From positions 71,296 to 135,295 of the forward strand of contig JBAZYN010000003.1 of assembly GCA_041659325.1 (NCBI GenBank): a stretch of 64,000 nucleotides of DNA, given 5' to 3'. The position numbers and the translations under genes are program-made. This stretch comes from Candidatus Shapirobacteria bacterium. GTDB lineage: Bacteria; Patescibacteriota; Microgenomatia; UBA12405. Of the stretch, positions 5,152 to 49,140 are shown in pieces; the stretch's first letter is position 1, and each line of letters begins with the position of its first letter. The notes under the pieces were generated by a model. The model saw only the letters and a list, made by a program, of their open reading frames with translations. It was not told where the DNA came from and made no database searches.

Positions 5152-5169
5152 TGAGTAATTGTAGCATTC

Positions 5170-5325: not shown

Positions 5326-5369
5326 TTAACTGAATACGAGGAGGAGGTCATTTGGTTGAAACCCATCTA

Positions 5370-5726: not shown

Positions 5727-5821
5727 GTATTGGTATGATACAAAAAGATGGTGGTAAAAGCAAGAAAGGGACCGAAGGTGGGGAGAGACAAATAATTTTG
5801 TAATCAGTAATCGGTAAGAAA

Positions 5822-5932
5822 GGTTTAGCCGAATTCGAGAATGAGTCCGTGCAATCCAAATCCCTCTTTAATTCTCCCTTTGACAAGGGAGAACATTGAT
5901 TATTGCCAGGGGAGGGTTTAGCCGAATTCGAG
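5822..5932. repeat. 75-bp insert carrying module aaatccctctttaattctccctttgacaagggagaac, flanked by 18-bp direct repeats ggtttagccgaattcgag (5822-5839 and 5915-5932)
   Basis: The second DR copy is the last 4 codons plus stop (LEFG*) of the permease gene. The first copy is an orphan duplicate distal to the insert. Confidence 0.8.
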
Positions 5933-7000: not shown

Positions 7001-7400
7001 TGGTTAAGTATAGAGTCTAAAAGTCTTAAAGTCGAAAGTCTAAAGTTTAAAGCCAGCATAAACAAATTAATAATTAACAATTAACAGATTTGTATCTGTA
7101 ATCGGTAATCAGTAATTGGTAATTAGTAATCTGTAAACTGTAATTAGCCTTAGCTGTAAGCGAGTGCACTAAATCCCTCTTAAAATTTCAATTTGTCCCG
7201 CCCGTCGGACAGGCAGGAGCAATCTTAAAACAACTCTACTATTTCAATCCTGTAAGGATTGCTTCGTCGCCTGAAAGGCTTCTCGCAATGACGGGGGCGG
7301 AAGATTGCCACTCCTTCCCTTCAACTATGTTCAGGGCAAGCCCTTCGACAAGCTCAGGATAAACTAGCTCAGGGTCGCAATGACGGGGAAAAGGGAAATT
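7001..7400. repeat. Composite intergenic repeat region (9-mer tandem gtctNaaag units, GTAATN hexamer array, palindromic modules)
   Basis: atagagtctaaaagtcttaaagtcgaaagtctaaag (compare 61960-62080); gtaatcggtaatcagtaattggtaattagtaatctgtaa; block 7300-7390 matches 1-60 and 59940-60000. Confidence 0.8.
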
Positions 7401-7436
7401 AAGAATTTAAAAAAACAAAAAACCAGGAAAGCTCTA

Positions 7437-7560
7437 ATTTCCCTCGAAGCGGCGGTGGCGGCGGTTGAACTCGATGGCGGCGTCGACAATTTTTGAGGGA
7501 TTAAAATCGGGGAAATGATCTTTTTCAAAATAGAATTCGGCATAGGCGTAATTTATAAAA
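7437..7560 (-). pseudogene. Duplicated 3' fragment of uppS (last ~36 codons plus stop)
   Basis: ~108 bp (7441-7548) about 93% identical to 8300-8407; translates to ...YAYAEFYFEKDHFPDFNPSKIVDAAIEFNRRHRRFEGN*. Confidence 0.85.
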
Positions 7561-7567
7561 ATATCGA

Positions 7568-8284
7568 TTAGTGGTGGAAAAACTGACGGACGGAAAGAAG
7601 TAGATAGTTAGTGGCAGCCGAAACGAATAGGATGCCCTGCAATGCCTTGTTTGTGAGGGACTTTTCGCCTTTTTCTGTCCCGGGGGTGTTTGGATCGATT
7701 AGCTTTATACCTTCTTGGGTTTTGAATAGATTATTGGAGTGGCGGAGAGAAAAAACAGCCCTGTCGACGATAAAAAGAAGTGACATCTTGTCGGGGACAC
7801 TTTCGTCCCTTCCGATTAAATCGTAATTTACTCCATATCTTAAATAGCATTTCATTGAATCGAATAAAATACATCTAAGCTGTGTGATATCGGCAGGCGG
7901 TAAACTCAAAATCCCCTTTAGCCCGAGTTTATTAAGAGGAGTACCTTCGACAAACTGCTGTATTCGGGCAATCCGGCTTGTCCCGGGAGCAGTACCCCCA
8001 ACAACCAGATAAGATTGAGCGACTATGGATTGTCTGGCTTGTTCCCCTGCGGTCCTTAACGTCAACTCTTCCAGAGTCCGTAATTTTTTTGCTTCGTTCC
8101 AAGCCTGATGCGGAGTATGGTCCCAAAAATTGTCCTTGGCGACCTTGACCACTACACCTTGGCCACTATCCGGAAGATAAACATTGGTTGATTTAGATTC
8201 GGTAGTGTTGTGATGATGATTCAAGTCAAACGGTAATCCCTGAGTATCAGACGAACGGTCGATCGACATATCTGATGATATCAA
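7568..8284 (-). CDS. hypothetical protein (inserted between uppS and its duplicated 3' end)
   Basis: 238-aa ORF; His-rich N-terminus; no motif recognised; begins 4 bp after the uppS stop. Confidence 0.55.
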   Translation of the reverse strand: MISSDMSIDRSSDTQGLPFDLNHHHNTTESKSTNVYLPDSGQGVVVKVAKDNFWDHTPHQAWNEAKKLRTLEELTLRTAGEQARQSIVAQSYLVVGGTAPGTSRIARIQQFVEGTPLNKLGLKGILSLPPADITQLRCILFDSMKCYLRYGVNYDLIGRDESVPDKMSLLFIVDRAVFSLRHSNNLFKTQEGIKLIDPNTPGTEKGEKSLTNKALQGILFVSAATNYLLLSVRQFFHH

Positions 8285-15472: not shown

Positions 15473-15542
15473 TGCGGGGTAGTGTACGGCTGCACGTGAG
15501 GCTCATAATCTCACAGGCCGGGTTCAACTCCCGGCCCCGCAA
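15473..15542 (+). tRNA. tRNA-Met (CAU), initiator-like
   Basis: tgcgggg...ggctcataatctcac...ggttcaactcccggccccgca; closely resembles E. coli tRNAfMet (CGCGGGG...GGGCTCATAACCC...GGTTCAAATCCGGCCCCCGCAACCA); CCA not encoded. Confidence 0.75.
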
Positions 15543-15610
15543 CATTTCACTTGGTAATCGGTAACCAGTAATTGGTAATTGGTAATAAGAAAATGTATCG
15601 GTTTTACTTG

Positions 15611-16043: not shown

Positions 16044-16117
16044 GGCAGGGTAGCTCAGCTGGTTAGAGCGTAGCATTCATAACGCTAAGGTCGCGGGTCC
16101 GAGCCCCGCCCCTGCTA
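16044..16117 (+). tRNA. tRNA(CAU), elongator Met or Ile2 (lysidine)
   Basis: ggcagggtagctcagctggttagagc-gtagcattcataacgcta-aggtc-gcgggtccgagccccgc-ccctgct-a; Ile-like backbone. Confidence 0.8.
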
Positions 16118-16202
16118 CAAACAAAACCCACCCGCCCTTCGACAAGCTCAGGGCACCCTCCCTTGAAAAAGGAGGGAAAAGAGGAAAGTTAAAAATTAAT
16201 TA

Positions 16203-16276
16203 GGGCATGTAGCTCAGTTGGTTAGAGCATCGATCTTATAAGTCGAGGGTCCATGGTCCGAGTCCATGCATGCCCA
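16203..16276 (+). tRNA. tRNA-Ile (UAU)
   Basis: gggcatgtagctcagttggttagagc-a-tcgat-cttataa-gtcga-gggtc-catgg-tccgagt-ccatg-catgccc-a; 7-nt anticodon loop cTTATAAa gives anticodon TAT. Confidence 0.65.
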
Positions 16277-16322
16277 CAGTGGGTGGAAAACCTAAATTAA
16301 TTTTTATTTATTTTTCCAAAAT

Positions 16323-17509: not shown

Positions 17510-18720
17510 CCAGGCAGATTGGGAGTTAGAATGCTTTTTGTTTTCGTCCTGTGCTTTTTGGGCCTGGACTCATCAGATCCGGAGAAACCGGATAAACACA
17601 CATCCGACCCACCTGGTGGCTATAAAAAACGCCACCAGGCAGGTCGGGGAACTCGATAGTGCTTGGCCCTCAGGGTCCGAAATTCACCCTAGAGGGCCTC
17701 GGACGCGTGGGCGTCGGTGCTACGGGGTGTAGCAGTGCGTCTGGGCCCAGAGGGTGTTCGACCTATCGACCAACTGGACATCCCAAGGGGGCTGTCGATT
17801 GTGACCGGGGGCGACGGTAAACTCGAACTCATTGTTCGACAACCATCGGTAGGAACACGGTTCCACACCCTCCCACAAAAGCAAGGCCCAATCCTCACCC
17901 GAGCTCCGCGGTAGCGGGGGCAAGTTGACCCGAATGCGGACGCTCCAGGGCACGTGGTGCCGGAAAGAGAAGACCACGCCGGGCCAACCCTCATGGTTGG
18001 GCCTGAATTCACGGGTCTCAACCTCCGTACCGCCGACGAACAAGGTCGCACTCGCGCTGCCCGGGCAGCCCTGGCATAGGACGCCAAGGAAGGAACGGCT
18101 GTTCCTTGGGGGCGGGGGGGGCGGTGGGGTGACCGGGGGGGTCAACGTGACCGGCGGGTTGGTCGGAGTGGCCGTGATCAGCGTCATCGGCGGGGTCGGG
18201 GTGGCCGAAGGGGTGGCCGAGGTCGTGGGCGTGTTGGTCGGGGTGGCCGAAGGGGTGGCCGTGGTCGTGGGGGTCGGCGACGGGGTGGCCGTGCGGGTCG
18301 GGGTACGGGTCGGCATGCAGTGGCGGATGTTCTCCTCCTGGATATTGATGGTGGAGGAATTCGCCACAATGCCATTCGGCCCTTCGAAGCGGATGCTGTA
18401 GACGCCCGGCTGCGCGATCCTCGTGAAGTGGGGGTCCTTCCCGGGTTTGGTGCAGCCTTCGCTGAGCGTGATCGACCGAGAGGAAACGACCTGGCCATCC
18501 CTAATGAGGGACAGAGTACCAGTGACCTTTTCGGTCGAGCATACACGGGCCCACATCGTCAGATCCTCGTAGCAGTCCCACCCTTCGGCGGGAATGGTGA
18601 CGACCGGCGTCTCGGCGGACACGACCGAAGAGTCCCGGAGGGATACTCCCACCAGGACGGCGAGGGCGATGATGCCCAAGAGCAACGCGGCGGACACGAT
18701 CTTTTTCCCGTTCATGAGAT
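17510..18720. other. High-GC (~60-65%) island in a ~42% GC background
   Basis: Abrupt composition shift immediately after the stop at 17507 and before 18720; the antisense strand is full of spurious long ORFs, as is typical for high-GC DNA. Confidence 0.8.
17720..18715 (-). CDS. secreted/membrane-anchored protein with a Pro-Thr-rich linker (high-GC, foreign-looking gene)
   Basis: Signal/TM MNGKKIVSAALLLGIIALAVLVGV; PT linker PTRTPTRTATPSPTPTTTATPSATPTNTPTTSATPSATPTPP...PPPPPPP; C-terminal Cys-containing domain. Confidence 0.7.
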   Translation of the reverse strand: MNGKKIVSAALLLGIIALAVLVGVSLRDSSVVSAETPVVTIPAEGWDCYEDLTMWARVCSTEKVTGTLSLIRDGQVVSSRSITLSEGCTKPGKDPHFTRIAQPGVYSIRFEGPNGIVANSSTINIQEENIRHCMPTRTPTRTATPSPTPTTTATPSATPTNTPTTSATPSATPTPPMTLITATPTNPPVTLTPPVTPPPPPPPRNSRSFLGVLCQGCPGSASATLFVGGTEVETREFRPNHEGWPGVVFSFRHHVPWSVRIRVNLPPLPRSSGEDWALLLWEGVEPCSYRWLSNNEFEFTVAPGHNRQPPWDVQLVDRSNTLWAQTHCYTP

Positions 18721-20467: not shown

Positions 20468-21175
20468 ATGGCGAAAACAAATCCAAAAATTGAAGCCCAG
20501 ACAAGAACCGTTTTGGGGAAAAAGGTTAAAAACTTAAGAGCCCAAGGGATTACTCCGGCAACCGTATACGGAAAAGGAGTTGAGCCGGTGTCGGTTCAAA
20601 TTAATACTAAGGAATTGGATAAACTGTTTGAAGACGTGGGTGAATCGGGATTAATTGATTTTGCAATTGACGGAAAGGTAGTCCCGGTATTGTTTAAAAA
20701 CCCTCAATATCATCCGGTTTTGGGGAACTTAATTCATATCGACTGCCACCAGGTAAATTTGAAAGAGAAAATTACGGCAACAGTACCAATTGAGTTTGTG
20801 GGTGAAAGTACGGCGGTGAAACTGGGAAATGTGTTGGTGGAAGTTTTGATGGAAATCGAGGTGGAAGCATTACCGACTGATTTGCCGGAAAAGATTGAAG
20901 TCGATTTGACGGTTTTGGAAACAGTGGAATCGGTGGTAACAGTGGCCGATTTGAAAGTTGACAGGACCTTAGTCGAGGTTAAAAATGACCCGGAACAGGT
21001 AATTGTGAAGGTGGAACTACCGAGAGAAGAAGAAGTGGAGCCGGTAGCAGCCGCTGAAGAGGCAACCGAACCGGTAGTGGCACCGGCAATGGCCCAGAAA
21101 ACTGAGGAAGAAAAAGAGGCGGATGCCAAGACCAAAGCAGCTGAAAAAGCGGCCTACAAGAAAGACGAAAAATAA
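20468..21175 (+). CDS. rplY: 50S ribosomal protein L25 / general stress protein Ctc
   Basis: MAKTNPKIEAQTRTVLGKKVKNLRAQGITPATVYGKG...; acidic C-terminal tail. Confidence 0.9.
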   Translation: MAKTNPKIEAQTRTVLGKKVKNLRAQGITPATVYGKGVEPVSVQINTKELDKLFEDVGESGLIDFAIDGKVVPVLFKNPQYHPVLGNLIHIDCHQVNLKEKITATVPIEFVGESTAVKLGNVLVEVLMEIEVEALPTDLPEKIEVDLTVLETVESVVTVADLKVDRTLVEVKNDPEQVIVKVELPREEEVEPVAAAEEATEPVVAPAMAQKTEEEKEADAKTKAAEKAAYKKDEK

Positions 21176-21178
21176 AAA

Positions 21179-21628
21179 CTATCTGGGTTGGGAGTCGAAA
21201 AAGAGATTGATGAGGTCGTCTCTAACCGGGTCAGCGTTCTTGGCCAGGAGAAGCGAGTTTTGGGCATCTGAGATTTTGTTCAGGCAGTGTTGGAGTTTGG
21301 CCATTTCCATATAGTCTTCGACGGTTTTGTCGGGTTTGACGACGAGACTGTTGAGCTGTTTTTTGAATTCTTCGGGATCGTTTTTAGCTTTGTAATCGGC
21401 TAAATCGGACTGATCAAGATAAAATTCCTGTGATTGGGCCAAATCCCAGCGACGATTGTCGATATAGAGGCGCCAGAGATTGAGATGGGCAGCATAGCGG
21501 TCCCCTTTTGACAGGGAAAACAAGGCCAGTCTATTTCTGGTGTATGGATCACGGCAAAAATAAACAGTAAGATTGGTAAAAATGAGGATAAAAAGAATAA
21601 TAATCAGAGACAGTTGGGATCTTTTCAT
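21179..21628 (-). CDS. hypothetical membrane-anchored protein
   Basis: N-terminal TM; stop overlaps the valS stop region by 4 nt. Confidence 0.45.
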   Translation of the reverse strand: MKRSQLSLIIILFILIFTNLTVYFCRDPYTRNRLALFSLSKGDRYAAHLNLWRLYIDNRRWDLAQSQEFYLDQSDLADYKAKNDPEEFKKQLNSLVVKPDKTVEDYMEMAKLQHCLNKISDAQNSLLLAKNADPVRDDLINLFFDSQPR

Positions 21629-23904
21629 TTTGGCCAGGCGGCGGTGATGAGCATGGCCTCTTTCAGATTATATTTTTTGGCGAGAGTTTGGTAGATATTT
21701 TCGGTGATAAAAGGGATGAAGGGATGAAGAAGCTTGAGAGAAGTAATCATAACGTGGAGAAGGACGGGCAGGGCGTCCGGTCCCCTATTTTTGGTGGATT
21801 CGAGATAAATATCGCAAAAATCATGCCAGAAAAAGTGGTAGAGGTCTTCTGAGGCCTGGCCGAAACGAAAATTATTTAGATTTTTGGTAGTGGATTTGAT
21901 GATTTGGTCGAGTTTGGTGAGGATGGCTTGGTCGGATAAATCCCTCTCGGCTTCGCCGCTTCTCCCTTTGACAAGGGAGATATTTACCGGAGCATCGCCG
22001 AATTTGAATTCGATGAAACGGGCGGCGTTCCAGATTTTGTTGATAAAGTTACGCTGGGCGCGGATTTTGTCTTCGGAGACGACGAAATCAGAGGCGGGGG
22101 CGATGCCGATGACCAGGGACATTCTGAGGGCATCGGTGCCGTATTTTTCGGTCATGGTGAGGGGATCAACCCCATTTCCCTTGGACTTGCTCATTTTTTG
22201 ACCTTTGGAATCGACGACCCGAGAATGAAGATGGACCATTTTGAAGGGAACATCTTTGGCTAAATATAGGCCAAACATGATCATTCTGGCGACCCAGAAG
22301 AAAAGAATATCCCAAAGAGTGTCGAGAACTGAAGTGGGGTAAAAATAGAAAAAATCCGGGGATGATTTTTGCGGATCATCGGGATTGAAACCGAGAGTGT
22401 TTAGAGGCCACTGGCCGCTTAAAAACCAGGTGTCAAAAGTATCGGTTTCCTGCAATAAATGGGTGGACTTGCATTTTGAACAATGCGAAACTTGGTCGAC
22501 GACAAAATCGGTGTCAACCGGGGCGATTAGTGATTGTAGCCCGTTTTTGATTTCTTCATAGGAATATTTGTCTTTTAGATCGGCGTAAAACCCGGAAACT
22601 ATTTCTTGGTCCCGATTTAGGAAGTTAATTTTTATTTGAGGACTGCAGTCCAAACAATACCAGGCGGGAATTTGGGGACCCCAAACAATTTGGCGGCTGA
22701 TATTCCAATCGCGGATATTTTCCATCCAGGTAATAAAAGCTTTTTTGAATCTGGTGGGGAAAAACTTGACCTGTCCCTCTTTGGCGGCGGCAATGGCGGC
22801 CTTGGCTAAAGGATCTATTTTTAGGTACCACTGGGGAGTAACCATGGGCTCGATGGGGCGGTTGCAGCGGTAACAACGGCCGATACGGTGCTGATATTTG
22901 TCGTCTATTTTGACTAACATACCGCGGGATTTCATATCCGCCACCACTTTTTCCCGGGCGGAAGCGACAGTCAGCCCGGCATATGGTCCGGTGAGCTCAT
23001 TTAGACGACCATCAAGACCGATAACCTTTTTGAGAGGTAAATTGTGCCTTTTGGCGGCTTCAAAATCGTTTGGATCGTGAGCGGGGGTGATTTTGACAAC
23101 ACCGGTGCCAAATTCCATATCGACCATATCATCAGCAATTACTTTGACAGTAAAAGGGCCGTTTAGCCCGTCGACGGTGATTTCCTGACCGATGTATTGG
23201 GTATACCGCGTGTCTTTGGGATGGACGGCGACGGCAGTGTCGCCAAACTTTGTTTCGGGGCGGGTGGTGGCCAGAGTGAACGGCCCATACTTCATATAAT
23301 ATAGGCTGGTTGTTTCGTCGACGTAATTGACTTCGAGATTGCTAAAGGCGGTGCCACAGTGAGGACAATAATTGACAATTTTTTCATCACGATAGATAAG
23401 GCCGTCGCGATAGAGCTTTTTGAAGACAGACAGGACATTGTTTACAATCGAGGGCTCCATACTGTAGTGATATCGGGTCCAATCCATGGAGAAACCCAGT
23501 TTTTTCATCTGGAAGACGTTTTGTTGCCGATTTTTTTCGACGAAATCCCAAATCAGCTGATATAGGGTCTGTCTGTCAAAATCAAAACGACTTTTGCCTT
23601 CCTTGGATAATTTTTTTTCGAAAACAAATTGGGTTTCGATGCCGGCATGATCGCCGCCGGGCAGCCATAAGGTGGGATCGCCCAACATGCGGTGATAGCG
23701 GACTAAAATATCTTCGATGGTAAATACGGCATGCCCCATGTGCATGGGATCGTTGGCGTTTGGGAGGGGCAAAATGATGGTGTAGGGTGGGTGGGATTTG
23801 CGAGCCTTTTGAGGATTTTTGGGGACAATCGGGGTGAAGGCGCCTGATTTTTCCCACAGGGAATAGATGTCCTGCTCGTTACTTGGGTCATATGCCTTGT
23901 CCAT
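21625..23904 (-). CDS. valS: valine--tRNA ligase (short form)
   Basis: HMGH motif (PNANDPMHMGHA), GGDHAGIETQ, KMSKSKGN; 759 aa; contains an in-frame repeat-derived insert SLVKGRSGEAERDL. Confidence 0.9.
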   Translation of the reverse strand: MDKAYDPSNEQDIYSLWEKSGAFTPIVPKNPQKARKSHPPYTIILPLPNANDPMHMGHAVFTIEDILVRYHRMLGDPTLWLPGGDHAGIETQFVFEKKLSKEGKSRFDFDRQTLYQLIWDFVEKNRQQNVFQMKKLGFSMDWTRYHYSMEPSIVNNVLSVFKKLYRDGLIYRDEKIVNYCPHCGTAFSNLEVNYVDETTSLYYMKYGPFTLATTRPETKFGDTAVAVHPKDTRYTQYIGQEITVDGLNGPFTVKVIADDMVDMEFGTGVVKITPAHDPNDFEAAKRHNLPLKKVIGLDGRLNELTGPYAGLTVASAREKVVADMKSRGMLVKIDDKYQHRIGRCYRCNRPIEPMVTPQWYLKIDPLAKAAIAAAKEGQVKFFPTRFKKAFITWMENIRDWNISRQIVWGPQIPAWYCLDCSPQIKINFLNRDQEIVSGFYADLKDKYSYEEIKNGLQSLIAPVDTDFVVDQVSHCSKCKSTHLLQETDTFDTWFLSGQWPLNTLGFNPDDPQKSSPDFFYFYPTSVLDTLWDILFFWVARMIMFGLYLAKDVPFKMVHLHSRVVDSKGQKMSKSKGNGVDPLTMTEKYGTDALRMSLVIGIAPASDFVVSEDKIRAQRNFINKIWNAARFIEFKFGDAPVNISLVKGRSGEAERDLSDQAILTKLDQIIKSTTKNLNNFRFGQASEDLYHFFWHDFCDIYLESTKNRGPDALPVLLHVMITSLKLLHPFIPFITENIYQTLAKKYNLKEAMLITAAWPK
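21938..21981. repeat. Palindromic repeat module inserted in frame inside valS
   Basis: aaatccctctcggcttcgccgcttctccctttgacaagggagat; identical 44-mer at 28827-28870 inside tsaD; encodes SLVKGRSGEAERD on the valS strand. Confidence 0.9.
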
Positions 23905-23914
23905 GGGATGATTT

Positions 23915-24060
23915 TAACATCTAAATCCCTCTAAATCTCCCCCTGCCTGCCGGCAGGCAGGCCTGCCCCCTCTTTGAAGAAAGAGGGGGAAATCAAACCC
24001 ACCCATTATCTCCATCCCTTGACTCTCCGAAAGCTTCGCATTCTGGCGGGTGAACAAGGG
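23915..24060. repeat. Mosaic repeat block (aaatccctctaaatctcc; ccctgcctgccggcaggcagg; ccccctctttgaagaaagaggggg)
   Basis: Perfect palindromes shared with 5238, 10370, 37862 and 61985. Confidence 0.8.
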
Positions 24061-24081
24061 GGGGATTTATATAAGTTATAA

Positions 24082-24720
24082 TTGACCATGAAACAAGGTG
24101 ATATTTATAAACTTCATAAAAAATATTCCCACGGAAAATATAAAAAGGAGATATTGGAAATTGTTTGGACACATAGCCTAATCGTTAAAGATATTTCATT
24201 GCAAATTGTTAACCATCTTGAAGAAAAATACGGAATTAAGACAGACAAGAAAATTGTTGAATTCGGAGCATTAATTCACGATATCGGTTTTTATGACTGC
24301 TTTGATGATAATTACAAAAAGACATGCAAATATCTGCTTCATGGGAAGATGGGCTACGATATTTTGACTAAAGAAGGGGTGTCGCAAAAAAAAGCGAGAT
24401 TTGCCTTGACACATACCGGAGTGGGGATAAGCAATGAACAAATAGAAAAGGAAAATCTTGATTTACCAAAAAATAATTATGTGCCAATCAGTTTAGAAGA
24501 AGAGATTGTCTGTTATGCCGATAATTTTCATTCAAAAGGTCATCCAAGATTTAATGATTTTGAAGGAACGTTGGAAGAATTAAATAAAATTAACCCGAAT
24601 TACGGGGTAATTTTGAAAAGATATAGAGAAAAATTTGGAATCCCTGACCTAAAACAACTTAAAGAAAAATACAGAGAATGGCACCGTGATATCAATGAAT
24701 GGGTCGAAGGCCTAAAATGA
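24082..24720 (+). CDS. HD-domain phosphohydrolase
   Basis: HD motif in FGALIHDIGF; later HTGVG. Confidence 0.7.
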   Translation: MTMKQGDIYKLHKKYSHGKYKKEILEIVWTHSLIVKDISLQIVNHLEEKYGIKTDKKIVEFGALIHDIGFYDCFDDNYKKTCKYLLHGKMGYDILTKEGVSQKKARFALTHTGVGISNEQIEKENLDLPKNNYVPISLEEEIVCYADNFHSKGHPRFNDFEGTLEELNKINPNYGVILKRYREKFGIPDLKQLKEKYREWHRDINEWVEGLK

Positions 24721-24733
24721 TAAAATAGCGAGA

Positions 24734-25903
24734 ATGGAAATAATCAAAATTAACGACAGTTACGAAGAAATTATTAAAAGGACGGCTGAAACGATAAGGG
24801 GCGGCGGACTGGTGATATTCCCATCGGATACGGTATATATTTTGGCGATGGATCCGACAAATGTTGATGCGACAAAGAAACTTTTGGCGTTTAAAAACCG
24901 CTGGGTGGGAAAGGCAATTTCGGTGGCAGTGGCGGATACTAAAATGGCCAAAGATTATGTAGAACTATCGGAAAACGCTGAAAATATATATGCTAACTTG
25001 CTACCCGGACCATTTACGGTAGTAAGCAAGGGAAAACATAAAATGGCGAGCGGGATTGAGGCGGAAAACGGGACTTTGGGGATAAGAATCCCCGATAACA
25101 AATATATTCACGATTTGGTGACAGCCATTGGGAAACCGGTAACGGCGACATCGGCTAATCTGTCGGGGCGGACACCGCATTATTCTATCGAGAGCTTTTT
25201 GAAAACATTGTCGCAGAAAAAGAGGGACATGATTGATTTGATCGTTGATGCGGGGAAACTGCGGTTTAATAAGCCGTCGACAGTTATTGATGCCACTGAG
25301 CCGGAAATCAAAATTTTGAGGCGAGGCGACCTGATTACTGCTAATTCTAAAACTTTGATATCCAAATCGGAAAAGGAAACGGGGAAGATTGCGGAGTTTA
25401 TATTGAATAAATCCCTAAATCAAAATCTACCCCTATCCCCTCCTTTGACGAAAGGAGGGGCACTGCCATTAGTATTTGGACTGAGTGGAGATTTGGGATG
25501 CGGAAAGACAGTGTTTTCGAGGAGTGTGGGGAAAATATTGGGGGTTAAAGAAAAAATCACTAGCCCGACATTTGTGATTATGAATGAGTATGATATCAGT
25601 CTGAAAGTCCAAAAGTCTGAAAGTCTGAAAGTTGGACAGCCGGTTAGTCTGAAAGTCCAAAAGTCTGAAAGTCTGAAAGCCGGGAAGTTTTTACATTTTG
25701 ATTTGTATAGAATCGGAGGCCAGTTTGAATTGGAAGAAATAAAATTTTGGGAACAGTTCAAACCGGGAACCGTGGCTTGTATTGAGTGGCCGGAAAATAT
25801 GGGAAAGGAAAATTTTGAGAAATTGAAAAAGATGACGAATTATAAGGCAATAAACTTTGAATATGTGAACGAGAGAACAAGAAAGATAAGTTATGAGATG
25901 TAA
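24734..25903 (+). CDS. L-threonylcarbamoyladenylate synthase (TsaC/YrdC domain) fused to tRNA t6A protein TsaE
   Basis: YrdC domain ...VTATSANLSGR...; TsaE P-loop GLSGDLGCGKTVF, SPTF, HFDLYRI; two in-frame repeat insertions in the TsaE half. Confidence 0.85.
   Translation: MEIIKINDSYEEIIKRTAETIRGGGLVIFPSDTVYILAMDPTNVDATKKLLAFKNRWVGKAISVAVADTKMAKDYVELSENAENIYANLLPGPFTVVSKGKHKMASGIEAENGTLGIRIPDNKYIHDLVTAIGKPVTATSANLSGRTPHYSIESFLKTLSQKKRDMIDLIVDAGKLRFNKPSTVIDATEPEIKILRRGDLITANSKTLISKSEKETGKIAEFILNKSLNQNLPLSPPLTKGGALPLVFGLSGDLGCGKTVFSRSVGKILGVKEKITSPTFVIMNEYDISLKVQKSESLKVGQPVSLKVQKSESLKAGKFLHFDLYRIGGQFELEEIKFWEQFKPGTVACIEWPENMGKENFEKLKKMTNYKAINFEYVNERTRKISYEM
25423..25463. repeat. Palindromic module aaatctacccctatcccctcctttgacgaaaggaggggcac inserted in frame in tsaE
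   Basis: Same module opens the Rep135 copies; encodes NQNLPLSPPLTKGGAL just before the TsaE P-loop. Confidence 0.9.
25598..25679. repeat. 9-bp tandem repeat (agtctgaaag/gtccaaaag units) inserted in frame in tsaE
   Basis: Encodes LKVQKSESLKVGQPVSLKVQKSESLKA between EYDIS and GKFLHFDLYR; the same unit family is intergenic at 7003-7050 and 61960-62080. Confidence 0.85.
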
Positions 25904-25904
25904 A

Positions 25905-26000
25905 CCAAATCCCTCTTTAATTCTCCCTTTGACAAGGGAGAACACTACTCTTGTGCGTAAGAACGACTGAATGTAAGAGACGAATTTTCCGCTTGGGCAA
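25905..26000. repeat. Module aaatccctctttaattctccctttgacaagggagaac plus a tail
   Basis: Identical to the module at 5858-5897. Confidence 0.8.
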
Positions 26001-26045
26001 TCCAAATTGATAAGGGAGATATAAAGTTTTTTGCGAATAGCAGGT

Positions 26046-26921
26046 TTACCAACCGCGGGAGGAGCCGCCGCCGCCGGAACGACCACCGCCAAAGCCGCCA
26101 AAACCACCTCCCCCGCCGGAACGGAAACCACCGCCTTTGAACCCCCCCATAGTCGTCCAGAAATTGGTGGGTTTACCGGATGATTTGAGATTTTTAAAGT
26201 TTTTGGAGAGAAGATAATCAAGAAGTAATCCCAACAAACCGAAGCCGACACCGGCCAAAAGACCGGCGACTAGAAAGCCAATAACAGCTCCGGCGATACC
26301 GCCGGTAAAAATCTCTTTGGAGCGGCCAAGATAGGCAATAAAATAAATAGGAAGCCCGGTAAAAATGAGAAAAAGGATAATGCCCAGAATGTTGCCGGAG
26401 GAGGGTTTCTCGGGTGAATCGGGGGGAATTTGAGTGGGATCTGATAGATAGGCTTCGAGACGATTTACTGTGTTTTGAACACCTAGTTCGTAATTTCCTT
26501 TTTTAAACTCGGGGATAAACTCGGTGTCGAGAATATTGCCGGCCCGACCATCGGTGATTATCGGCTCCAGACCATAACCGACTTCGATTCTGACTTGGCG
26601 CTGCCCGGGAGCGATTAAAAGAAGAAGGCCGTTATCCTGGCCTTTTTTGCCAATCCCCCATTTTTGAAAAAGATCCAGGGCGTATTCTTCGACGGACAAA
26701 TCATCCATGGAAACAACGGTGGCAACGGCAATTTCGTTTTTGGTTTTGGACTCGAAATCGGCCAGGTTTTGATTTAGGATGGCTTCAAATTCGGGGCTTA
26801 AAATTTCGGCATAGTCGTTTACATACCCCCGATATTCGGGGAGGACGACTTTGGCGAAAACCGAATGAACTCCTAGAAAAAGGAAAACAAAAACTAACGT
26901 CAGCAAAACCTTTGGCTTCAT
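26046..26921 (-). CDS. TPM-domain (TLP18.3/Psb32-like) protein with a Gly-rich C-terminus
   Basis: YVNDYAEILSPE...GLLLLIAPGQRQVRIEVGYGLE; signal peptide; TM; GGFRSGGGGGFGGFGGG tail. Confidence 0.75.
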   Translation of the reverse strand: MKPKVLLTLVFVFLFLGVHSVFAKVVLPEYRGYVNDYAEILSPEFEAILNQNLADFESKTKNEIAVATVVSMDDLSVEEYALDLFQKWGIGKKGQDNGLLLLIAPGQRQVRIEVGYGLEPIITDGRAGNILDTEFIPEFKKGNYELGVQNTVNRLEAYLSDPTQIPPDSPEKPSSGNILGIILFLIFTGLPIYFIAYLGRSKEIFTGGIAGAVIGFLVAGLLAGVGFGLLGLLLDYLLSKNFKNLKSSGKPTNFWTTMGGFKGGGFRSGGGGGFGGFGGGRSGGGGSSRGW

Positions 26922-26924
26922 TTA

Positions 26925-27491
26925 TTAGTTGGTGATGTCCAATTTGACCGAAGGGGCAGTATCGGCACCATCCTGGGCTTGGAAAAATTGTCGTTGTTTG
27001 AAACCAAAAAGATTGGCAAGGAGGCTACCGGGGAAACGAATCACCTTGAGATTGTACTCGGAGACGGTTTCGTTGAACCTTTTTCGTTCGACGGCTATCC
27101 GGTTTTCGGTACCGGCAAGCTCATCCATGAGCCTGACTACCGTAGTGTCGGATTTTAACTCCGGGTAGTTTTCCATAATTACCAAAAGACGACCAAGAGA
27201 GCTTTCGACACCGGTGGCGGCGGCAGATTTTTCATCCACTGTTGTGGCGCCGGCATAGCGGGAACGGGCATCGGCAATATCTTTGAAGATGGTTTGTTCC
27301 TGCTTGAGAACACCTTTGACGGATTCTACTAAATTGGGGATAAGATCGAAGCGGCGCTGATACTGGGTTTCGACCTGGGCCCACTGGACGTCGACACTTT
27401 GATTGCCGGTGACGAGACCATTGTAGGCGGAAATTGCCCATAAAAATAAAAACACGGCGATGACACCGAGGACTAATAGACCTTTTTTCAT
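26925..27491 (-). CDS. lemA: LemA family protein
   Basis: N-terminal TM plus YNGLV...QRRFDLIPNLVE... LemA signature. Confidence 0.8.
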   Translation of the reverse strand: MKKGLLVLGVIAVFLFLWAISAYNGLVTGNQSVDVQWAQVETQYQRRFDLIPNLVESVKGVLKQEQTIFKDIADARSRYAGATTVDEKSAAATGVESSLGRLLVIMENYPELKSDTTVVRLMDELAGTENRIAVERKRFNETVSEYNLKVIRFPGSLLANLFGFKQRQFFQAQDGADTAPSVKLDITN

Positions 27492-27495
27492 ATGT

Positions 27496-28164
27496 TTATA
27501 AAAATTTGAAACTTGTAATTAGTTTTTCGCATTCTGATTTGAGGGCGGCATCCGAGTTGTGAATACACTGGATGGTGTAGAACTTATCTTTGTATTTTAC
27601 ATCAACTAGAGTTTGGGCGGAAATGTCGTAGCGGAAAGCAGGTTGGCCAGAGAGAAGGTAACTTCGGGTGTTGTCCAAAACCGGCCGGCCGGGATTTTCC
27701 CAGGACCAATCACTACCGACATGGACGGCGATATTGCCACCAATACGATAGAAAGCAATTCTGTGGCCGGTAGGTTCGGCAATTTTGTATACTTTTCTAT
27801 CTGACATATAGGAAAGGGTGAACCCATCTTCGGTGCCATCATAGGTCTGAAAAGCGGGGGTGGGCCCGGGGGTTAGGGTGGGAGCCGGGGAATCTTCCGG
27901 CGAAGGAAGTGGCGAAGAGGTGGCGGGGAATTCGGAGGGAGTTTCTGAGACAGAGGGAACAAATTCGGGAGACGGGGTGGCGGATTGCGGGTTTTCCTCG
28001 AAAACGAGGGGAGGTTCGGGCGGAGTAACAATATTATCCTGCGTTGATTTTATTTTGAAAAACAAAAAAATACCGATGAGGGAGAGGATGACAAAAACAG
28101 CAGAAAGGGAGAGATATCTTTTGTTGGATTGAAGCTGATCAAGATTAGCACGACTGGTATCCAT
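27496..28164 (-). CDS. hypothetical membrane-anchored protein with a Pro/Ser/Thr-rich linker
   Basis: TM LSLSAVFVILSLIGIFLFF; PEPPLVFEENPQSATPSPEFVPS... Confidence 0.5.
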   Translation of the reverse strand: MDTSRANLDQLQSNKRYLSLSAVFVILSLIGIFLFFKIKSTQDNIVTPPEPPLVFEENPQSATPSPEFVPSVSETPSEFPATSSPLPSPEDSPAPTLTPGPTPAFQTYDGTEDGFTLSYMSDRKVYKIAEPTGHRIAFYRIGGNIAVHVGSDWSWENPGRPVLDNTRSYLLSGQPAFRYDISAQTLVDVKYKDKFYTIQCIHNSDAALKSECEKLITSFKFL

Positions 28165-28229
28165 CAGTTAATGATACAGAGTCAGGGAAACATTGGCAAG
28201 AGAAACTAGCCTAACGGTATCTTTATTTT

Positions 28230-28481
28230 CTACCCTTTTACCGGCCATACCCCTGGCCCCTTTGGCTGACTATTTTGTGCCTCAGCCTGATTAGCTACCG
28301 GAAGACCGAGTGGTAACAAGCCGGCCCTTGTATCTTCTAGATTAACCGAGTCTGCCCCTTTGACTACCGGTTGCCCGAAAATACTTATAAATACTGTTCC
28401 GTCCGGAGAATTATCAAATTCATCGCGGGTAATTAGTAAAATATCAGCTTGGTTTTGTGGATCCCCTTCTTTCAATGTCAT
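28230..28481 (-). CDS. hypothetical small protein
   Basis: 83-aa ORF divergent from tsaD. Confidence 0.3.
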   Translation of the reverse strand: MTLKEGDPQNQADILLITRDEFDNSPDGTVFISIFGQPVVKGADSVNLEDTRAGLLPLGLPVANQAEAQNSQPKGPGVWPVKG

Positions 28482-28574
28482 AGATAATAATAAAAATAAT
28501 TATTGTTCTGATTATAATGTATGTTATAGGTCTTTGTCAAGAGTATTACCGGCAATGGACGTTTACTACCTTGT

Positions 28575-29783
28575 GTGTTTTTCGATTGGATTTCGCGGGA
28601 AGAGACAAGGCCAGGGCGGTATAATAGGCGGATGATTGTACTGGCAATAGAAACAAGTTGTGACGATACGTGTGCGGCGGTGCTAGAAAATGACCGGATA
28701 TTGTCGAACGTGGTTTCGTCACAAATTAACCTACATGCCCAGTGGGGCGGAGTGGTGCCAGATATTGCCAAAAGGGCGCATATGGAAAGAATTATGCCGG
28801 TGGTGATGACAGCTTTAAAAAGGGCAAAATCCCTCTCGGCTTCGCCGCTTCTCCCTTTGACAAGGGAGATGGAAAAATTGATGAATGAAATTGATGTGAT
28901 TGCGGTGACGGTGGGACCCGGGCTAGCGCCCGCTTTGGGAGTGGGAGTGAATACTGCCAAAGAACTGGCAATAAAATACAAAAAAAAACTGGTGGCGGTA
29001 AACCATGTGGAGGGGCATATTTTGTCCAACCTGGCAAAAAACAGGAAGGGAAAACCGGAGAGAGAGATCGAGTACCCTGCCCTAGTACTGACGGTTTCGG
29101 GAGGACATACCAAGATCATTTTGATGAATCAAAATGATCAATTTTCAATTTCTAATTCTCAATTTTTAAAAAATAAAAAAGTACCAAATAAAATAGGTGG
29201 TTTTCAATATCAGGTTGTTGGAGAAACGCTGGATGATGCGGCGGGAGAGGCACTGGATAAGGCAGCAAAATTGATGGGGCTGGGGTATCCCGGAGGGCCG
29301 ATAATTGAGAGGTTGGCGGAGGGCGGAGACCAGAATTTTCTTGAATTACCCAGACCAATGGCAGACAAAAAGATTCTTGACTACAGTTTTTCGGGGCTGA
29401 AAACTAGCTTTTATTACAAGATTAAGGACTGGCCCAAGGATAAGGTGGCCCAAAATTTGCATGACTTGGCGGCAAGCTATCAGGCGGCAGTGTTTGAGAT
29501 GCTTCTCAGAAAATTTAAACTGGCAATTGAAAAATGTGAGCCAAAAAGTCTGATGGCCTGCGGCGGAGTGATGGCAAATGTGACATTAAGAAAACAATTG
29601 CGGATGTTGGCGAGAAAATTTAAGTTGCCGATTTTTATGCCATATACTAAGATTTTGAATACGGATAATGCCGGGATGATTGGGGTGGCGGGATATTTTA
29701 AGGCAATGAGGGGTGAGTTTGTAAAAGATATTGAAGGTTTGGACAGAAACCCGAGAGCACAATTAACAATTAAATTTTTGTAA
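28575..29783 (+). CDS. tsaD: tRNA N6-adenosine threonylcarbamoyltransferase TsaD
   Basis: MIVLAIETSCDDTCAA (likely true start ~28632), HVEGH, SGGHT, DDAAGEALDKAAKLMGL; contains the repeat-derived insert KSLSASPLLPLTRE and an AT-rich low-complexity insert NQNDQFSISNSQFLKNKKVPNK. Confidence 0.9.
   Translation: MFFDWISREETRPGRYNRRMIVLAIETSCDDTCAAVLENDRILSNVVSSQINLHAQWGGVVPDIAKRAHMERIMPVVMTALKRAKSLSASPLLPLTREMEKLMNEIDVIAVTVGPGLAPALGVGVNTAKELAIKYKKKLVAVNHVEGHILSNLAKNRKGKPEREIEYPALVLTVSGGHTKIILMNQNDQFSISNSQFLKNKKVPNKIGGFQYQVVGETLDDAAGEALDKAAKLMGLGYPGGPIIERLAEGGDQNFLELPRPMADKKILDYSFSGLKTSFYYKIKDWPKDKVAQNLHDLAASYQAAVFEMLLRKFKLAIEKCEPKSLMACGGVMANVTLRKQLRMLARKFKLPIFMPYTKILNTDNAGMIGVAGYFKAMRGEFVKDIEGLDRNPRAQLTIKFL
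28827..28870. repeat. Palindromic repeat module inserted in frame inside tsaD (opposite orientation to the valS copy)
   Basis: 44/44 identical to 21938-21981. Confidence 0.9.
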
Positions 29784-29784
29784 T

Positions 29785-30170
29785 CAGTAATCTGTAATTG
29801 GTAATTAAGTCAAAACCCACCCTTTAATTCCCTCCCTTGACCCTCCTACACCATGGCTACGGAGGGGCGAGAGGGAGGGCGGAACATTGCAATCCAAATC
29901 CCTCTAAATCTCCCTTTGACAAGGGAGACTTCAAAAACCCCTCACCCATTCGGGAGCTCCCCTTGACCCGCCTGAGGCGGGTAAACCGGCAGGCAGGCCT
30001 ATCCCCTCCTTTAACCCTCCTACGCCATGGCTACGGAAGGGCGATGGAAAGGGAGAGCACTGCTGATTATCGCGAATGAATAGGGTGTGAGGTGGTTTTG
30101 TATTTATTACCGTAATGATTGCCACGCTACGCTCGCAATGACGCGTGGATCCCAATGACAGTTTGTTGAG
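29785..30170. repeat. Large mosaic repeat block including a partial Rep135 variant (30056-30160)
   Basis: GTAATN hexamers; ccctacaccatggctacggagggg twice; aaatccctctaaatctccctttgacaagggagacttcaaaaacccc (compare 48980); cgcaatgacg. Confidence 0.8.
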
Positions 30171-30241
30171 AAAAAATTTAGCATAGATTTCGGTAAATAT
30201 GCGGTTTATAGGACAATGGTATAATCGGGATAATCGATAAT

Positions 30242-31699
30242 ATGGTGGCAATAATAATTACTTTACTTTATTGGTTTTGGGTGAAGGGCGGGGGCGGATT
30301 TAATTTGGGATTTAGTGCCCTTGGTACGATATTTTTTATATGGCTCTTGGTTAAAAAGGGAGAAATAAGAAAGGATAAATATTTGATAGCTTTGTGGCTG
30401 ATGGGAGTGGCAATAGCCTGGTTTCAGACGTGGAGAAATTTTGAGGGGATAAAAGCTATCAGCGTGGTGACTTTGGTGACGTTGGGCGGGTATTTGTCGG
30501 CTTTAGGGAAACAGCCAAAGGCGATAATTGATCTTCAGAGAATAGTGGGCAGTGCCCTCAAAACTATTCCGGATTTTTTTCGGGAACTTTTTGGGTTGGG
30601 GACGAAATTTTTGACAATTAAAGTATTTTCCAAAACCAAGGGAGAGAGATGGAATAAAATACTGGCGGGGGCAATCTTGGCGGTACCGATGGTGCTAGTG
30701 TTTGGAGGATTGTTTTATAGCGCTGATCCGATTTTTGCCAAACTGATAAACAGTATTAGACTGCCGCAGATAAATATTTCGGAAAAATTAATTGGCGATG
30801 TAGTGTCGACAGTAATGGTTTTGGGGATGAGCTTGACGCTGGCTAATTTTCGACTAGCCAAAAGGAGTGAAAACGGCAAAAGGATTAAGGGCGCGGAAGA
30901 GATAACAATTGCCGCCGGGGTAGTGGCGGGATTGTTTTTGGTGTTTTCAGCGATACAAATAAGATACTTTGGAATAAGTAGCGATGAACTAAGGGAAATG
31001 GGGATAATGTATTCGGAATATACCAGAAAGGGCTATGCAGAAATGCTTTTGGCGGCGGGACTGGCGATAGGATTGGTGTTGTGGCTAGATAAGATGAAAA
31101 AGGGAGCGGCAAAAAAAATTGGGCTTGCACTGGTGGCAGAAACGCTTTTGATAGTGATAGCAGCTACAAACAGAAACTATCTTTATCAGGCAGTACACGG
31201 GTTTACCAGAGTTAGGCTGATGGGATTTTTGATGTCGGGATGGATGGGAGCAGCGTTACTTTTGGTGGGGTGGAAAATGGTGAAAAGAAAATCGGATAAT
31301 AGATTTTTTAGGGCGATAATTGGGGTAACGGTGGCGACAGTGCTTCTGGCCAATATAGCCAACATTGACCGAATGGTGGTGAAAAACAGACTGCCGAATT
31401 TGGGATATGGGATTGACTATATATATGTTTCGGAATTGTCGTATGACGCACATGAGATTTGGCCGTGGCTACTGGACGAAACAGATGAAAAATTGAGAGG
31501 CGCGCCGGAGAGACGGTGGGTTTACTATGGCCTGAGAGCAAAGGCTGATAGACTAAAGGGCGAGAGGGAGCGTAATTTCGCAAACTGGGCGGGGTGGAAC
31601 GGGACGGCAGTAGAGGCGGAAAAAACAATGGAAAAATTAAGAGAGAGGTTGGACGAAGAGGCAAAAGAAATTGTAATTTCGAAAGAAAGTGAAACATAA
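30242..31699 (+). CDS. hypothetical polytopic membrane protein
   Basis: About 10 TM helices and a charged C-terminal cytoplasmic tail. Confidence 0.5.
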   Translation: MVAIIITLLYWFWVKGGGGFNLGFSALGTIFFIWLLVKKGEIRKDKYLIALWLMGVAIAWFQTWRNFEGIKAISVVTLVTLGGYLSALGKQPKAIIDLQRIVGSALKTIPDFFRELFGLGTKFLTIKVFSKTKGERWNKILAGAILAVPMVLVFGGLFYSADPIFAKLINSIRLPQINISEKLIGDVVSTVMVLGMSLTLANFRLAKRSENGKRIKGAEEITIAAGVVAGLFLVFSAIQIRYFGISSDELREMGIMYSEYTRKGYAEMLLAAGLAIGLVLWLDKMKKGAAKKIGLALVAETLLIVIAATNRNYLYQAVHGFTRVRLMGFLMSGWMGAALLLVGWKMVKRKSDNRFFRAIIGVTVATVLLANIANIDRMVVKNRLPNLGYGIDYIYVSELSYDAHEIWPWLLDETDEKLRGAPERRWVYYGLRAKADRLKGERERNFANWAGWNGTAVEAEKTMEKLRERLDEEAKEIVISKESET

Positions 31700-48904: not shown

Positions 48905-49140
48905 TACTAAAACCTAGCCTTCTCTCCTTAACCCTACTTAGCTTAGGGTACGGATAGACGAGAGAAAGAGGGGAAACAATGCACGCCAAATCCCTCTAAA
49001 TCTCCCTTTGACAAGGGAGACTTCAAAACCCCACACCCTTTCGGGAGCTCCCCTTGACCCTCCTATCGGCGGGCAGGCAAGGGAGCAAAATCTTCCCCTA
49101 TCCCCTCCTTTGAAGAAAGGAGGGGGCTTCTCTTCAGATA
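48905..49140. repeat. Mosaic repeat block
   Basis: aaatccctctaaatctccctttgacaagggagacttcaaaacccc... (compare 29890-29960); cccctatcccctcctttgaagaaaggaggggg. Confidence 0.8.

Follow-up and report, generated by a model that had tools for sequence, protein, structure and literature searches.

The 64,000-nucleotide stretch of Candidatus Shapirobacteria DNA analysed here (the window) carries five short inserts within the reading frames of three genes, valS, tsaC-tsaE and tsaD (Table 1). These in-gene inserts are very probably copies, inserted in frame into permissive loops, of the short, modular, non-coding repeats that are widespread between genes in Shapirobacteria and other Microgenomates. The core of this reading, namely repeat modules inserted in frame in loops of essential genes, was put forward in an earlier note made from the sequence of the window alone, and it is supported by orthologues with empty sites, by protein structures and by intergenic copies of the modules. 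The phenomenon is much wider than three genes: it involves recurrent hot spots across the Microgenomates, and it includes a strand bias that was absent from the earlier note.

Repeat modules within valS, tsaC-tsaE and tsaD

The exact 44-mer AAATCCCTCTCGGCTTCGCCGCTTCTCCCTTTGACAAGGGAGAT is present once in valS and once in tsaD, both times on the + strand, antisense to the first gene and sense to the second. A search of the 64-kb window allowing up to 3 mismatches returned these 2 matches only, and no match was obtained in 100 dinucleotide-preserving shuffles. Exact search and reading of the open reading frames (ORFs) thus confirmed that the two genes share an identical 44-mer in opposite gene orientations, as first noticed by eye. 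The identities proposed earlier for valS, tsaD and tsaC-tsaE agree with their Pfam domains. The ValS protein is 100% identical to an NCBI protein from a metagenome-assembled genome (MAG), annotated as valine--tRNA ligase of Candidatus Shapirobacteria, and TsaD is 100% identical to the database homologue P0001. The TsaC-TsaE protein, too, is 100% identical to its counterpart in this Candidatus Shapirobacteria MAG, in which the three genes lie on a contig of 141 kb. The valS copy consists of a leader, AAATCCCTCT, followed by a nested hairpin, CGGCTTCGCCG, and then by the hairpin TCTCCCTTTGACAAGGGAGA, and it occupies the linker directly N-terminal to the anticodon-binding domain. In TsaD, the insert encoded by the 44-mer sits between helix 43-64 and strand 89-94.

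The TsaE half of the tsaC-tsaE fusion carries two further inserts, a hairpin module upstream of the P-loop (site E1) and a tandem array between the SPTF and HFDLYR motifs (site E2), both present where the earlier note had placed them. The first of these contains the second hairpin module, CCCCTATCCCCTCCTTTGACGAAAGGAGGGG (25430-25460); five intergenic copies of it, with 0-1 mismatch, are found elsewhere in the window. The 82-bp array had been described as made of 9-bp units; the array itself is real, while Tandem Repeats Finder gave a period of 8, with 10.2 copies of the consensus AGTCTGAA. Since three 8-bp units make 24 nt, or 8 codons, the frame is kept and the protein shows a SLKVQKSE periodicity. 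Similar arrays are found in intergenic DNA at 6998-7052 and 61955-62087. A fifth insert, absent from the earlier note, occupies a second site in tsaD and is periodic (7/14) over 29138-29193. The reading frame is kept in all five inserts and none contains a stop codon, which extends to the fifth what had been claimed for four. A census of the window also bore out the abundance of the modules between genes, as intergenic copies of family A (the family of the 44-mer), of family B and of the 8-bp array were found. In a map of 13-mer repeats, which was too noisy for short repeats, modules of at least 30 nt were intergenic except in valS, tsaC-tsaE and tsaD.

Occupied and empty sites in homologues, relatives and structures

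For each protein we took the 120 best homologues (59-85% identity) and compared them at the five sites. All five were hypervariable in length, with 100-114 distinct strings per site: from 0 to 39 residues at TsaD site 1, 4 to 65 at TsaD site 2, 1 to 26 at TsaE E1, 2 to 36 at TsaE E2 and 11 to 41 in the ValS linker. Of the TsaD sites, one follows ALKRAK, where the first long helix ends, and the other follows GGHTKIIL, in a beta-hairpin turn. About one quarter of the homologues are empty at each of them, for example P0002 (ALKRASTT-MDN and GIGN), and the others carry 8-65 extra residues. The TsaE sites before the P-loop and between SPTF and HFDLYR vary in the same manner, and the ValS linker, between WNA(S/A)RF and the anticodon-binding domain, varies in every homologue. 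The strings found at these sites include translations of family A in forward frames (NPSKSPFDKGDF and IPLNLPLTRET from two frames of its short form, KSLSASPLLPLTRE from its long form) and from the reverse strand (KSPLSKGDLEG(F/L), SLVKGRSGEAERD and SPLSKGEAAKPRGI), as well as translations of tandem arrays (ISNFQF, ISDLRSQ and SESLKV).

Comparison with three related loci gave a similar picture. The TsaD closest in sequence (L124/P0002, 85% amino acid identity) is empty at the 44-mer site. That site holds the same element in L123, the locus of closest synteny (TsaD 79% identical), with 44 of 44 nt conserved, and in L001 (73%), with 43 of 44; the third-codon-position identity of the flanks is 0.58 and 0.49, respectively. 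Site E1 of TsaE is occupied by family B in the window, by family D (AAACCCTAACCCTACCCTTTCCCTTGACAGGGCAAGG, intergenic in the window) in L123 and by a third hairpin in L001. At site E2, the 8-bp array of the window is replaced by a clean 36-nt short family A element in L123, whereas L001 is empty; L001 also lacks the ValS insert. The orthologue alignments proposed as a check in the earlier note thus revealed empty sites in TsaD (L124/P0002), ValS (L001) and TsaE E2 (L001). For ValS the claim of an insertion stands only in part: the net gain is 9-10 residues when compared with L001, and likewise with Thermus thermophilus ValRS, but about 2 residues when compared with most Shapirobacteria ValS. 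The element therefore replaces the ancestral linker as much as it adds to it.

In L123, hot spot 1 of tsaD (gene at 4586-5737) contains two adjoining modules, a SLRAKRSNPCLQS module (TCATTGCGAGCGAAGCGAAGCAATCC...) followed by the identical 44-mer, which suggests that occupied sites draw in further modules. When the TsaD proteins were ordered by neighbour joining without the variable sites, close neighbours differed both in occupancy and in type of module. The occupied sites therefore reflect recurrent independent events at hot spots rather than one ancient insertion.

The inserted residues are absent from the solved structures of Thermotoga maritima TsaD (6N9A/6NAK), Haemophilus influenzae TsaE (1HTW) and T. 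thermophilus ValRS (1GAX), and the second TsaD insert is likewise without counterpart in T. maritima TsaD. In AlphaFold2 models of TsaD (mean predicted local distance difference test score, pLDDT, 87) and TsaC-TsaE (mean pLDDT 80), all the inserts fall between secondary-structure elements, in agreement with the loop placement expected from the earlier note. The pLDDT was below 50 for TsaD residues 175-187 and for TsaE residues 232-242 and 292-315, and about 78 for the insert encoded by the 44-mer (TsaD 66-79), compared with about 95 for its flanks.

Anatomy and conservation of the family A element

The 20-nt hairpin of family A was searched for in one genome per GTDB species. More than 120 loci were recovered, nearly all of them from Shapirobacteria or other Microgenomates/Patescibacteria, and the sequence is common to many species of Shapirobacteria, Woesebacteria and Collierbacteria. 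In the short form (77 of 131 copies) the element reads [A/C]AATCCCTCT-AAA-TCTCCCTTTGACAAGGGAGA-CTT. In the long forms the AAA slot is replaced by perfect nested hairpins of many sequences, such as CGGCTTCGCCGCT, CCCCGCCAAGGCGGGGCT, CATCGCTAACGCGATGTT and CTCCGACTTTAAGTCGGAGTT; the 44-mer is a long form with the nested hairpin CGGCTTCGCCGCT. Leader and CTT tail are nearly invariant even though they lie outside the search pattern, and a search with the leader alone in 932 kb of related DNA gave 156 matches where about 7 were expected. Variant main hairpins, such as CTCCCCTTGACAGGGGAG and TCTCCCAATGACTGGGAGA, keep their pairing through compensatory changes, and loop variants occur as well. Single-strand folding predicted an unpaired leader of 10-13 nt followed by one or two hairpins, with z-scores of -3.5 to -4.4. 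The elements measure 35-45 nt and their upstream context is weakly conserved (Y-Y-[A/C]).

The family A leader is also found joined to other hairpins, as in the module at 23921-23964 (leader AAATCCCTCTAAATCTCCC, hairpin CCTGCCTGCCGGCAGGCAGG); judging by this chimera, leaders and hairpins appear to recombine. The repeats therefore constitute a combinatorial system of leaders and hairpins.

Hosts of the element in other genomes

Among the GTDB copies, 28 of 125 (22%) lie in ORFs reaching at least 50 codons on both sides; these copies are free of stops by construction of the screen. The hosts of eight of the 28 were confirmed by Pfam: MetRS, a MiaB-like radical-SAM protein, a GT4 glycosyltransferase, a RimK-like ATP-grasp protein, MgsA, the NAD-dependent DNA ligase LigA, an epimerase and a VirB4/TraG-like ATPase. 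ValS (four copies), TsaE and TsaD were also recognised among the in-ORF copies by their flanking peptides. The exact 42-mer of the long form was found at 26 positions in metagenome contigs, many of them intergenic; its hosts were TsaD, TsaE at site E1, the same site of GT4 and one long ORF that was not scanned with Pfam. In the frame of tsaD site 1 the short form would bring in a TAA codon, and only the long form was seen there. That only about 22% of the copies lie in genes, in mostly coding genomes and in stop-free forms, is what one would predict for a high flux of insertions filtered by selection.

The three hosts in the window all act on tRNA, and the earlier note hinted that this might be relevant. 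We rejected a special role of tRNA-related hosts, as the same element is carried by unrelated families (GT4, RimK-like, MgsA, LigA, epimerase and VirB4/TraG-like proteins); because the element occurs in so many unrelated families, the function shared by the three hosts is coincidental.

As to the position of two of the other hot spots, that of MetRS (L068, L122) follows the LGNLVSRV helix and is the structural equivalent of the ValS linker, and that of the GT4 glycosyltransferase (L017, L022, L128, L147, L148) follows the INPP(V/I)D motif.

Strand bias

All copies of the asymmetric families in the window (6 of family A, 6 of family B, 2 of family D and the GATTGCCAC...CGCAATGAC modules) lie on the + strand, with genes on both strands, and the GC skew is +0.15 to +0.27 throughout. 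We used GC skew as a proxy for the direction of replication. Among the GTDB loci, 96 family A copies were on the G-rich strand and 17 on the other (p about 1e-14). The G-rich strand carried 48% of the ORF nucleotides and the other strand 52%, and gene orientation is therefore not the source of the bias. In-gene copies were on the G-rich strand in a ratio of 12:1 when sense to their host gene and of 11:1 when antisense. Family A peptides gave a consistent result: homologues of TsaD and TsaC-TsaE contain them in forward frames (18:1), those of ValS in reverse frames (12:0). In sequence the G-rich strand corresponds to the template of the lagging strand, which is transiently exposed as a single strand; the bias therefore points to a replication-coupled step on single-stranded DNA (ssDNA), insofar as GC skew reports the direction of replication.

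In the related loci L003-L122 the GC skew reaches about 0.4 and is uniformly positive, though genes are split evenly between strands.

Discussion

How the modules may spread

In the explanation that we favour, modules consisting of hairpins with a C/T-rich single-stranded leader, or of 7- or 8-bp tandem arrays, occupy the DNA between genes and some of their copies have entered protein-coding genes. The survivors would be those inserted in frame, free of stops and located in structurally permissive surface loops, and they would be translated as extra, probably disordered, loop residues; that the inserts are translated is suggested by the conservation of frame. Frequent gain and loss would turn the few permissive loops into hot spots, with different modules or mosaics in close relatives. 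The spread itself may take place on the ssDNA of the lagging-strand template, through an HUH/Y1 enzyme (IS200/RAYT-like) acting in trans or through template switching at hairpins in the course of replication. We propose a replication-coupled ssDNA mechanism of some kind only tentatively, at somewhat less than even chances, and the involvement of a Y1 enzyme specifically is doubtful. Y1/HUH enzymes (IS200/IS605 TnpA, RAYTs) recognise a hairpin and a short 5' guide; they work on the template of the lagging strand, and both excision and insertion are seamless (PMC6006769, PMC5027513). The leader followed by a hairpin, the seamless empty sites without target-site duplication and the strand bias would, by analogy, be consistent with this logic.

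Several observations weigh against the view that the inserts are repeats which have spread into genes. No transposase could be tied to the modules: a screen for HUH...Y motifs in 1,627 ORFs from 932 kb of related DNA yielded a single true Y1_Tnp, whose flanking hairpins are of the GTAG type and not of family A. Neither target-site duplications nor terminal inverted repeats were detected in comparisons of filled and empty sites or in boundary logos, and no convincing target motif emerged from them. In addition, 15% of the copies are in the opposite orientation. Finally, family A hardly varies over dozens of species of 30-50% GC, and conservation of the tsaD copy (44/44 and 43/44 nt) far exceeds that of the coding sequence around it. 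Such behaviour is not what one would expect of neutral selfish DNA; it may reflect selection on the nucleic acid itself, gene conversion between copies or re-insertion at specific sites. When viral contigs were scanned for the family A hairpin there were 0 matches, and thus no evidence of a phage vector.

The Y1_Tnp gene itself (L122, 4979-5447) encodes a RAYT-like protein of 156 aa (PF01797, E = 5.7e-6). It lies between inverted GTAG-type hairpins, GTAGGGGCTCGGCTCGCCCGAGCCC and GTAGGGGTTTAGCTTGCCTAAACCCCTA (4930-5480), in a REPtron-like arrangement, 1.1 kb from the family A copy inside MetRS.

Alternative explanations

It is unlikely, in our estimation, that the loops are merely fast-evolving, low-complexity segments whose likeness to the repeats arose by convergence, or by gene conversion or template switching with intergenic copies, without transposition. 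Variability of the same loops in nearly all homologues would fit this explanation, as would the lack of target-site duplication and of a linked transposase, the mosaic or chimeric modules (for example 23921-23964) and the substitution of the ValS module for an ancestral linker. However, exact identity over 42-44 nt across unrelated genes, frames, orientations and genomes rules out convergence, and conversion requires a prior homologous tract, yet clean empty sites occur. Templated copying without a transposase is nevertheless a live mechanism for the spread of the modules.

The modules might instead be functional signals under selection (a strand-oriented ssDNA signal that serves replication or priming, a signal for DNA uptake, or an RNA hairpin), the in-gene copies being needed or tolerated. 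This we judge decidedly unlikely. The near-invariance of leader, hairpin and tail in dozens of species, unlike the species-specific REPs (PMC6006769), speaks in its favour, together with the contrast in tsaD between the element and the third codon positions of its flanks (49-58% identity), the strong bias towards the G-rich strand and the compensatory changes that preserve the hairpin. Nevertheless, unrelated modules swap at one site and their presence varies, which argues against a position-specific function. The density of about 6 family A copies per 64 kb is far below that of known uptake sequences, and the copies are depleted in genes, with 22% in ORFs of mostly coding genomes. The modules did not match any Rfam family either: with Rfam 15, only 3 tRNAs reached the gathering threshold in the window and no match with E <= 1 was obtained in 28500-30300. 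A consensus scan of 21000-31000 for promoters (sigma-70 hexamers) and terminators (GC-rich hairpin followed by a T-run) flagged no family A copy. Copies of family A are also found antisense to their flanking genes.

A more far-reaching possibility, which we hold to be quite unlikely, is that the Microgenomates possess a conserved, replication-strand-oriented system of leaders and hairpins on ssDNA, kept or moved by a machinery that acts on the template of the lagging strand, and constantly rewriting surface loops of essential enzymes, so that an element at the nucleic acid level, and not selection on the proteins, would shape part of the proteome. If so, the invariance of the element between species, and its conservation beyond that of the coding sequence around it, would reflect a host-level function or unusually faithful copying, and not ordinary selfish spread.

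Removal of the inserts before the proteins function, through an intron, translational bypass or an intein, would leave the mature proteins unchanged, and it is highly improbable. CPR (candidate phyla radiation) bacteria are known for intervening sequences in their rRNA genes, and the present inserts fold as stable hairpins. But the five inserts of the window and the aligned full-length homologues are in frame and stop-free in several frames and both orientations, which removal at the RNA level would not impose, with the caveat that the sets of homologues and of long ORFs were pre-selected for intact frames. Furthermore, the stop-containing short form is missing from tsaD site 1, a size of 35-82 nt is too small for self-splicing introns or inteins, and no Rfam match was found.

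There is next to no chance of an assembly artefact (a collapsed repeat or a chimeric join), even though the window comes from a MAG in which repeats are abundant: every insert is bordered on either side by orthologous coding sequence, inserts at the same sites occur in hundreds of homologues from many projects, and three independent assemblies from other samples (ENA ERZ27250602 and ERZ27248239, Logan SRR10861649) have this element at the corresponding tsaD site, which settles a doubt that the earlier note itself had raised.

Relation to known repeat systems

We return to our preferred explanation, in-frame insertion of spreading modules, and to its relation with known systems. Palindromic elements inserted in frame in protein-coding genes are described for Rickettsia (Rickettsia palindromic elements, RPE; PMC10969869, citing Ogata et al. 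2000), where they are about 100-150 bp long and confined to that genus. Like RPEs as thus described, the present modules are interspersed palindromes found both between genes and in frame in unrelated, often essential genes, in fold-compatible positions, in a host-dependent bacterium with a small genome. Going by the same description they are set apart by their size (35-45 nt, or arrays of 7-8 bp), by their unpaired C/T-rich leader followed by one or two hairpins and by the phylum in which they occur. Further differences from RPEs as described there are that several unrelated families vie for the same loops, with turnover between close relatives, strand bias and conservation across many species. 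The parallel with RPEs drawn in the earlier note therefore holds for the outcome, in-frame palindromes in loops of essential genes; length, anatomy and phylum show that these modules are not members of the RPE family, and no relationship in sequence would be expected.

The size of about 35 nt, with a short conserved single-stranded 5' motif at the foot of a GC-rich hairpin, recalls the REP/BIME/REPIN-RAYT repeats (PMC6006769, PMC3116915), as do the intergenic mosaics of clustered modules and the presence of a Y1_Tnp gene in a related genome (L122). In contrast to REPs, the family A leader [A/C]AATCCCTCT is without the GTAG/GTGG guide (PMC6006769), 22% of the copies are in ORFs whereas REPs are extragenic, and the element is not species-specific; unlike REPINs, its copies are co-oriented rather than arranged in inverted doublets. 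With IS200/IS605 elements the modules share a strongly biased orientation, the active strand being the one that serves as lagging-strand template (by the GC-skew proxy), and the combination of hairpin and guide (PMC5027513, PMC6006769). Seamless insertion and excision without target-site duplication, as in IS200/IS605, would also fit the clean empty sites. The modules differ in being single units of leader and hairpin, with no pair of left- and right-end hairpins, no conserved target tetranucleotide identified and no linked tnpA/tnpB found, and the resemblance would thus be one of mechanism only. Intragenic MITE-type repeats (ERIC, BOX, Correia, Coxiella QMITE) are likewise small, non-autonomous and able to form in-frame fusions with host ORFs (PMC10969869, PMC5896051). 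Unlike the present modules, however, they measure 100-300 bp, with terminal inverted repeats and target-site duplications, and they occur in frame only sporadically, not at recurrent hot spots in essential enzymes.

Like uptake sequences, the modules are short motifs shared by related species, present in coding frames where they give tolerated peptides, and often in hairpins. Uptake sequences (DUS of Neisseria, USS of Pasteurellaceae) have cores of 10-12 nt and occur about once per kb. To our knowledge they do not show a replication-strand bias, and we know of no uptake data for CPR bacteria. In sum, the modules are RPE-like in outcome, REP-like in size and anatomy and IS200/IS605-like in strand bias, and they fail the defining features of each of these families. 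Literature searches, including searches on peptide and DNA strings, found no description of them in CPR/Patescibacteria.

What is new is the recurrence of multi-family hot spots, the modular leader-hairpin anatomy conserved across species and the replication-strand bias. Selfish DNA in proteins, best documented so far in Rickettsia, is thereby extended to the CPR in a smaller, more modular and more dynamic version, in which the same loops of TsaD, TsaE, ValS, MetRS, GT4 and others are repeatedly struck by different repeat families. It accounts for much of the length heterogeneity of CPR proteins and for recurrent strings such as SPFDKGD, SPLSKGDLEG, LPLTRE and ISNFQF, which mislead annotation, alignment and domain calling, and it provides a natural map of insertion-tolerant loops in essential enzymes. 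We know of no genetics for this group; strand bias, leader-hairpin anatomy with its nested-hairpin slot and cross-species conservation together make a testable case for a replication-coupled ssDNA mechanism.

Features of the window and neighbouring genes

Table 1. Genes carrying inserts, and repeat modules, located in the window.
Feature	Position	Strand	Description
valS, 759 aa	21625..23904	-	Pfam tRNA-synt_1 (residues 13-598) and Anticodon_1 (658-759)
Family A element, long form, in valS	21938..21981	+ (antisense to valS)	Read ISLVKGRSGEAERD, residues 642-656
tsaC(Sua5/YrdC)-tsaE fusion, 389 aa	24734..25903	+	Pfam Sua5_yciO_yrdC (residues 20-198) and TsaE in two stretches
Family B module (family D5), TsaE site E1	25419..25464	+	Leader AAAATCTACCCCTAT, hairpin CCCCTCCTTTGACGAAAGGAGGGG; read NQNLPLSPPLTKGGA, just before the P-loop
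8-bp tandem array (AGTCTGAA)n (family D1), TsaE site E2	25598..25679	+	Read SLKVQKSESLKVGQPVSLKVQKSESLKAG, between SPTF and HFDLYR
tsaD, 383 aa from annotated ATG	28632..29783	+	Pfam TsaD; ORF open from GTG 28575
Family A element, long form, identical 44-mer, in tsaD	28827..28870	+ (sense)	Read KSLSASPLLPLTRE, residues 66-79
Second tsaD insert (hot spot 2)	29133..29201	+	Partly 7-bp periodic QNDQFSISNSQFLKNKK...; read QNDQFSISNSQFLKNKKVPNKIGG, beta-hairpin turn after GGHTKIIL
Intergenic family A element	5856..5895	+	Hairpin 5873-5892
Chimeric module (family D17)	23921..23964	+	Family A leader AAATCCCTCTAAATCTCCC joined to another hairpin, CCTGCCTGCCGGCAGGCAGG; 17 nt upstream of valS start
Intergenic family A element, TTAAT-spacer form (family D10)	25905..25944	+	2 nt past tsaC-tsaE stop; hairpin 25922-25941
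Intergenic module mosaic 3' of tsaD	29784..30145	+	7-bp GTAATYR array, long imperfect hairpins, short family A 29894-29931, GATTGCCAC...CGCAATGAC modules
Short family A hairpin in mosaic 3' of tsaD	29909-29928	+	Intergenic
Intergenic cluster	48986..49125	+	Short family A 48986-49023 (hairpin 49001-49020), then family B module 49095-49125

ValS is short, its C-terminal end being the anticodon-binding domain. It is followed by a 149-aa ORF (21179-21628, - strand) whose start overlaps the valS stop codon, and which has an N-terminal hydrophobic helix and no Pfam match; in L001 a 149-aa ORF, likewise without Pfam match, is found at the same position after valS (4130-4579). Each of the 120 closest homologues has the TsaC-TsaE fusion. 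The window and L001 share the gene order valS / HD-domain gene / tsaC-tsaE / tsaD, and the window and L123 have a TPM-phosphatase-LemA-hypothetical block between tsaC-tsaE and tsaD. Near tsaD, L123 carries a gene with the Pfam domain 23S_rRNA_IVP (four-helix bundle; 7413-7778), with no counterpart in the region of the window examined.

Two other repeats in the window are outside the hairpin module families. The first is a 159-nt tandem repeat of about 2.7-3 copies, 83-87% identical (47444-47920), in a 304-aa ORF (47425-48339, - strand); the second is a G-rich repeat with 12/30/42-nt periodicity and a local GC content of 0.51 (18110-18309), in a 331-aa ORF (17720-18715, - strand). Finally, a tRNA-Ile gene with the anticodon TAT (UAU; 16203-16277) adjoins two tRNA-Met(CAT) genes (15473-15543 and 16044-16118). 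Isoleucine tRNAs with a UAU anticodon are uncommon in bacteria, and this one bears on the reading of AUA codons in the organism.

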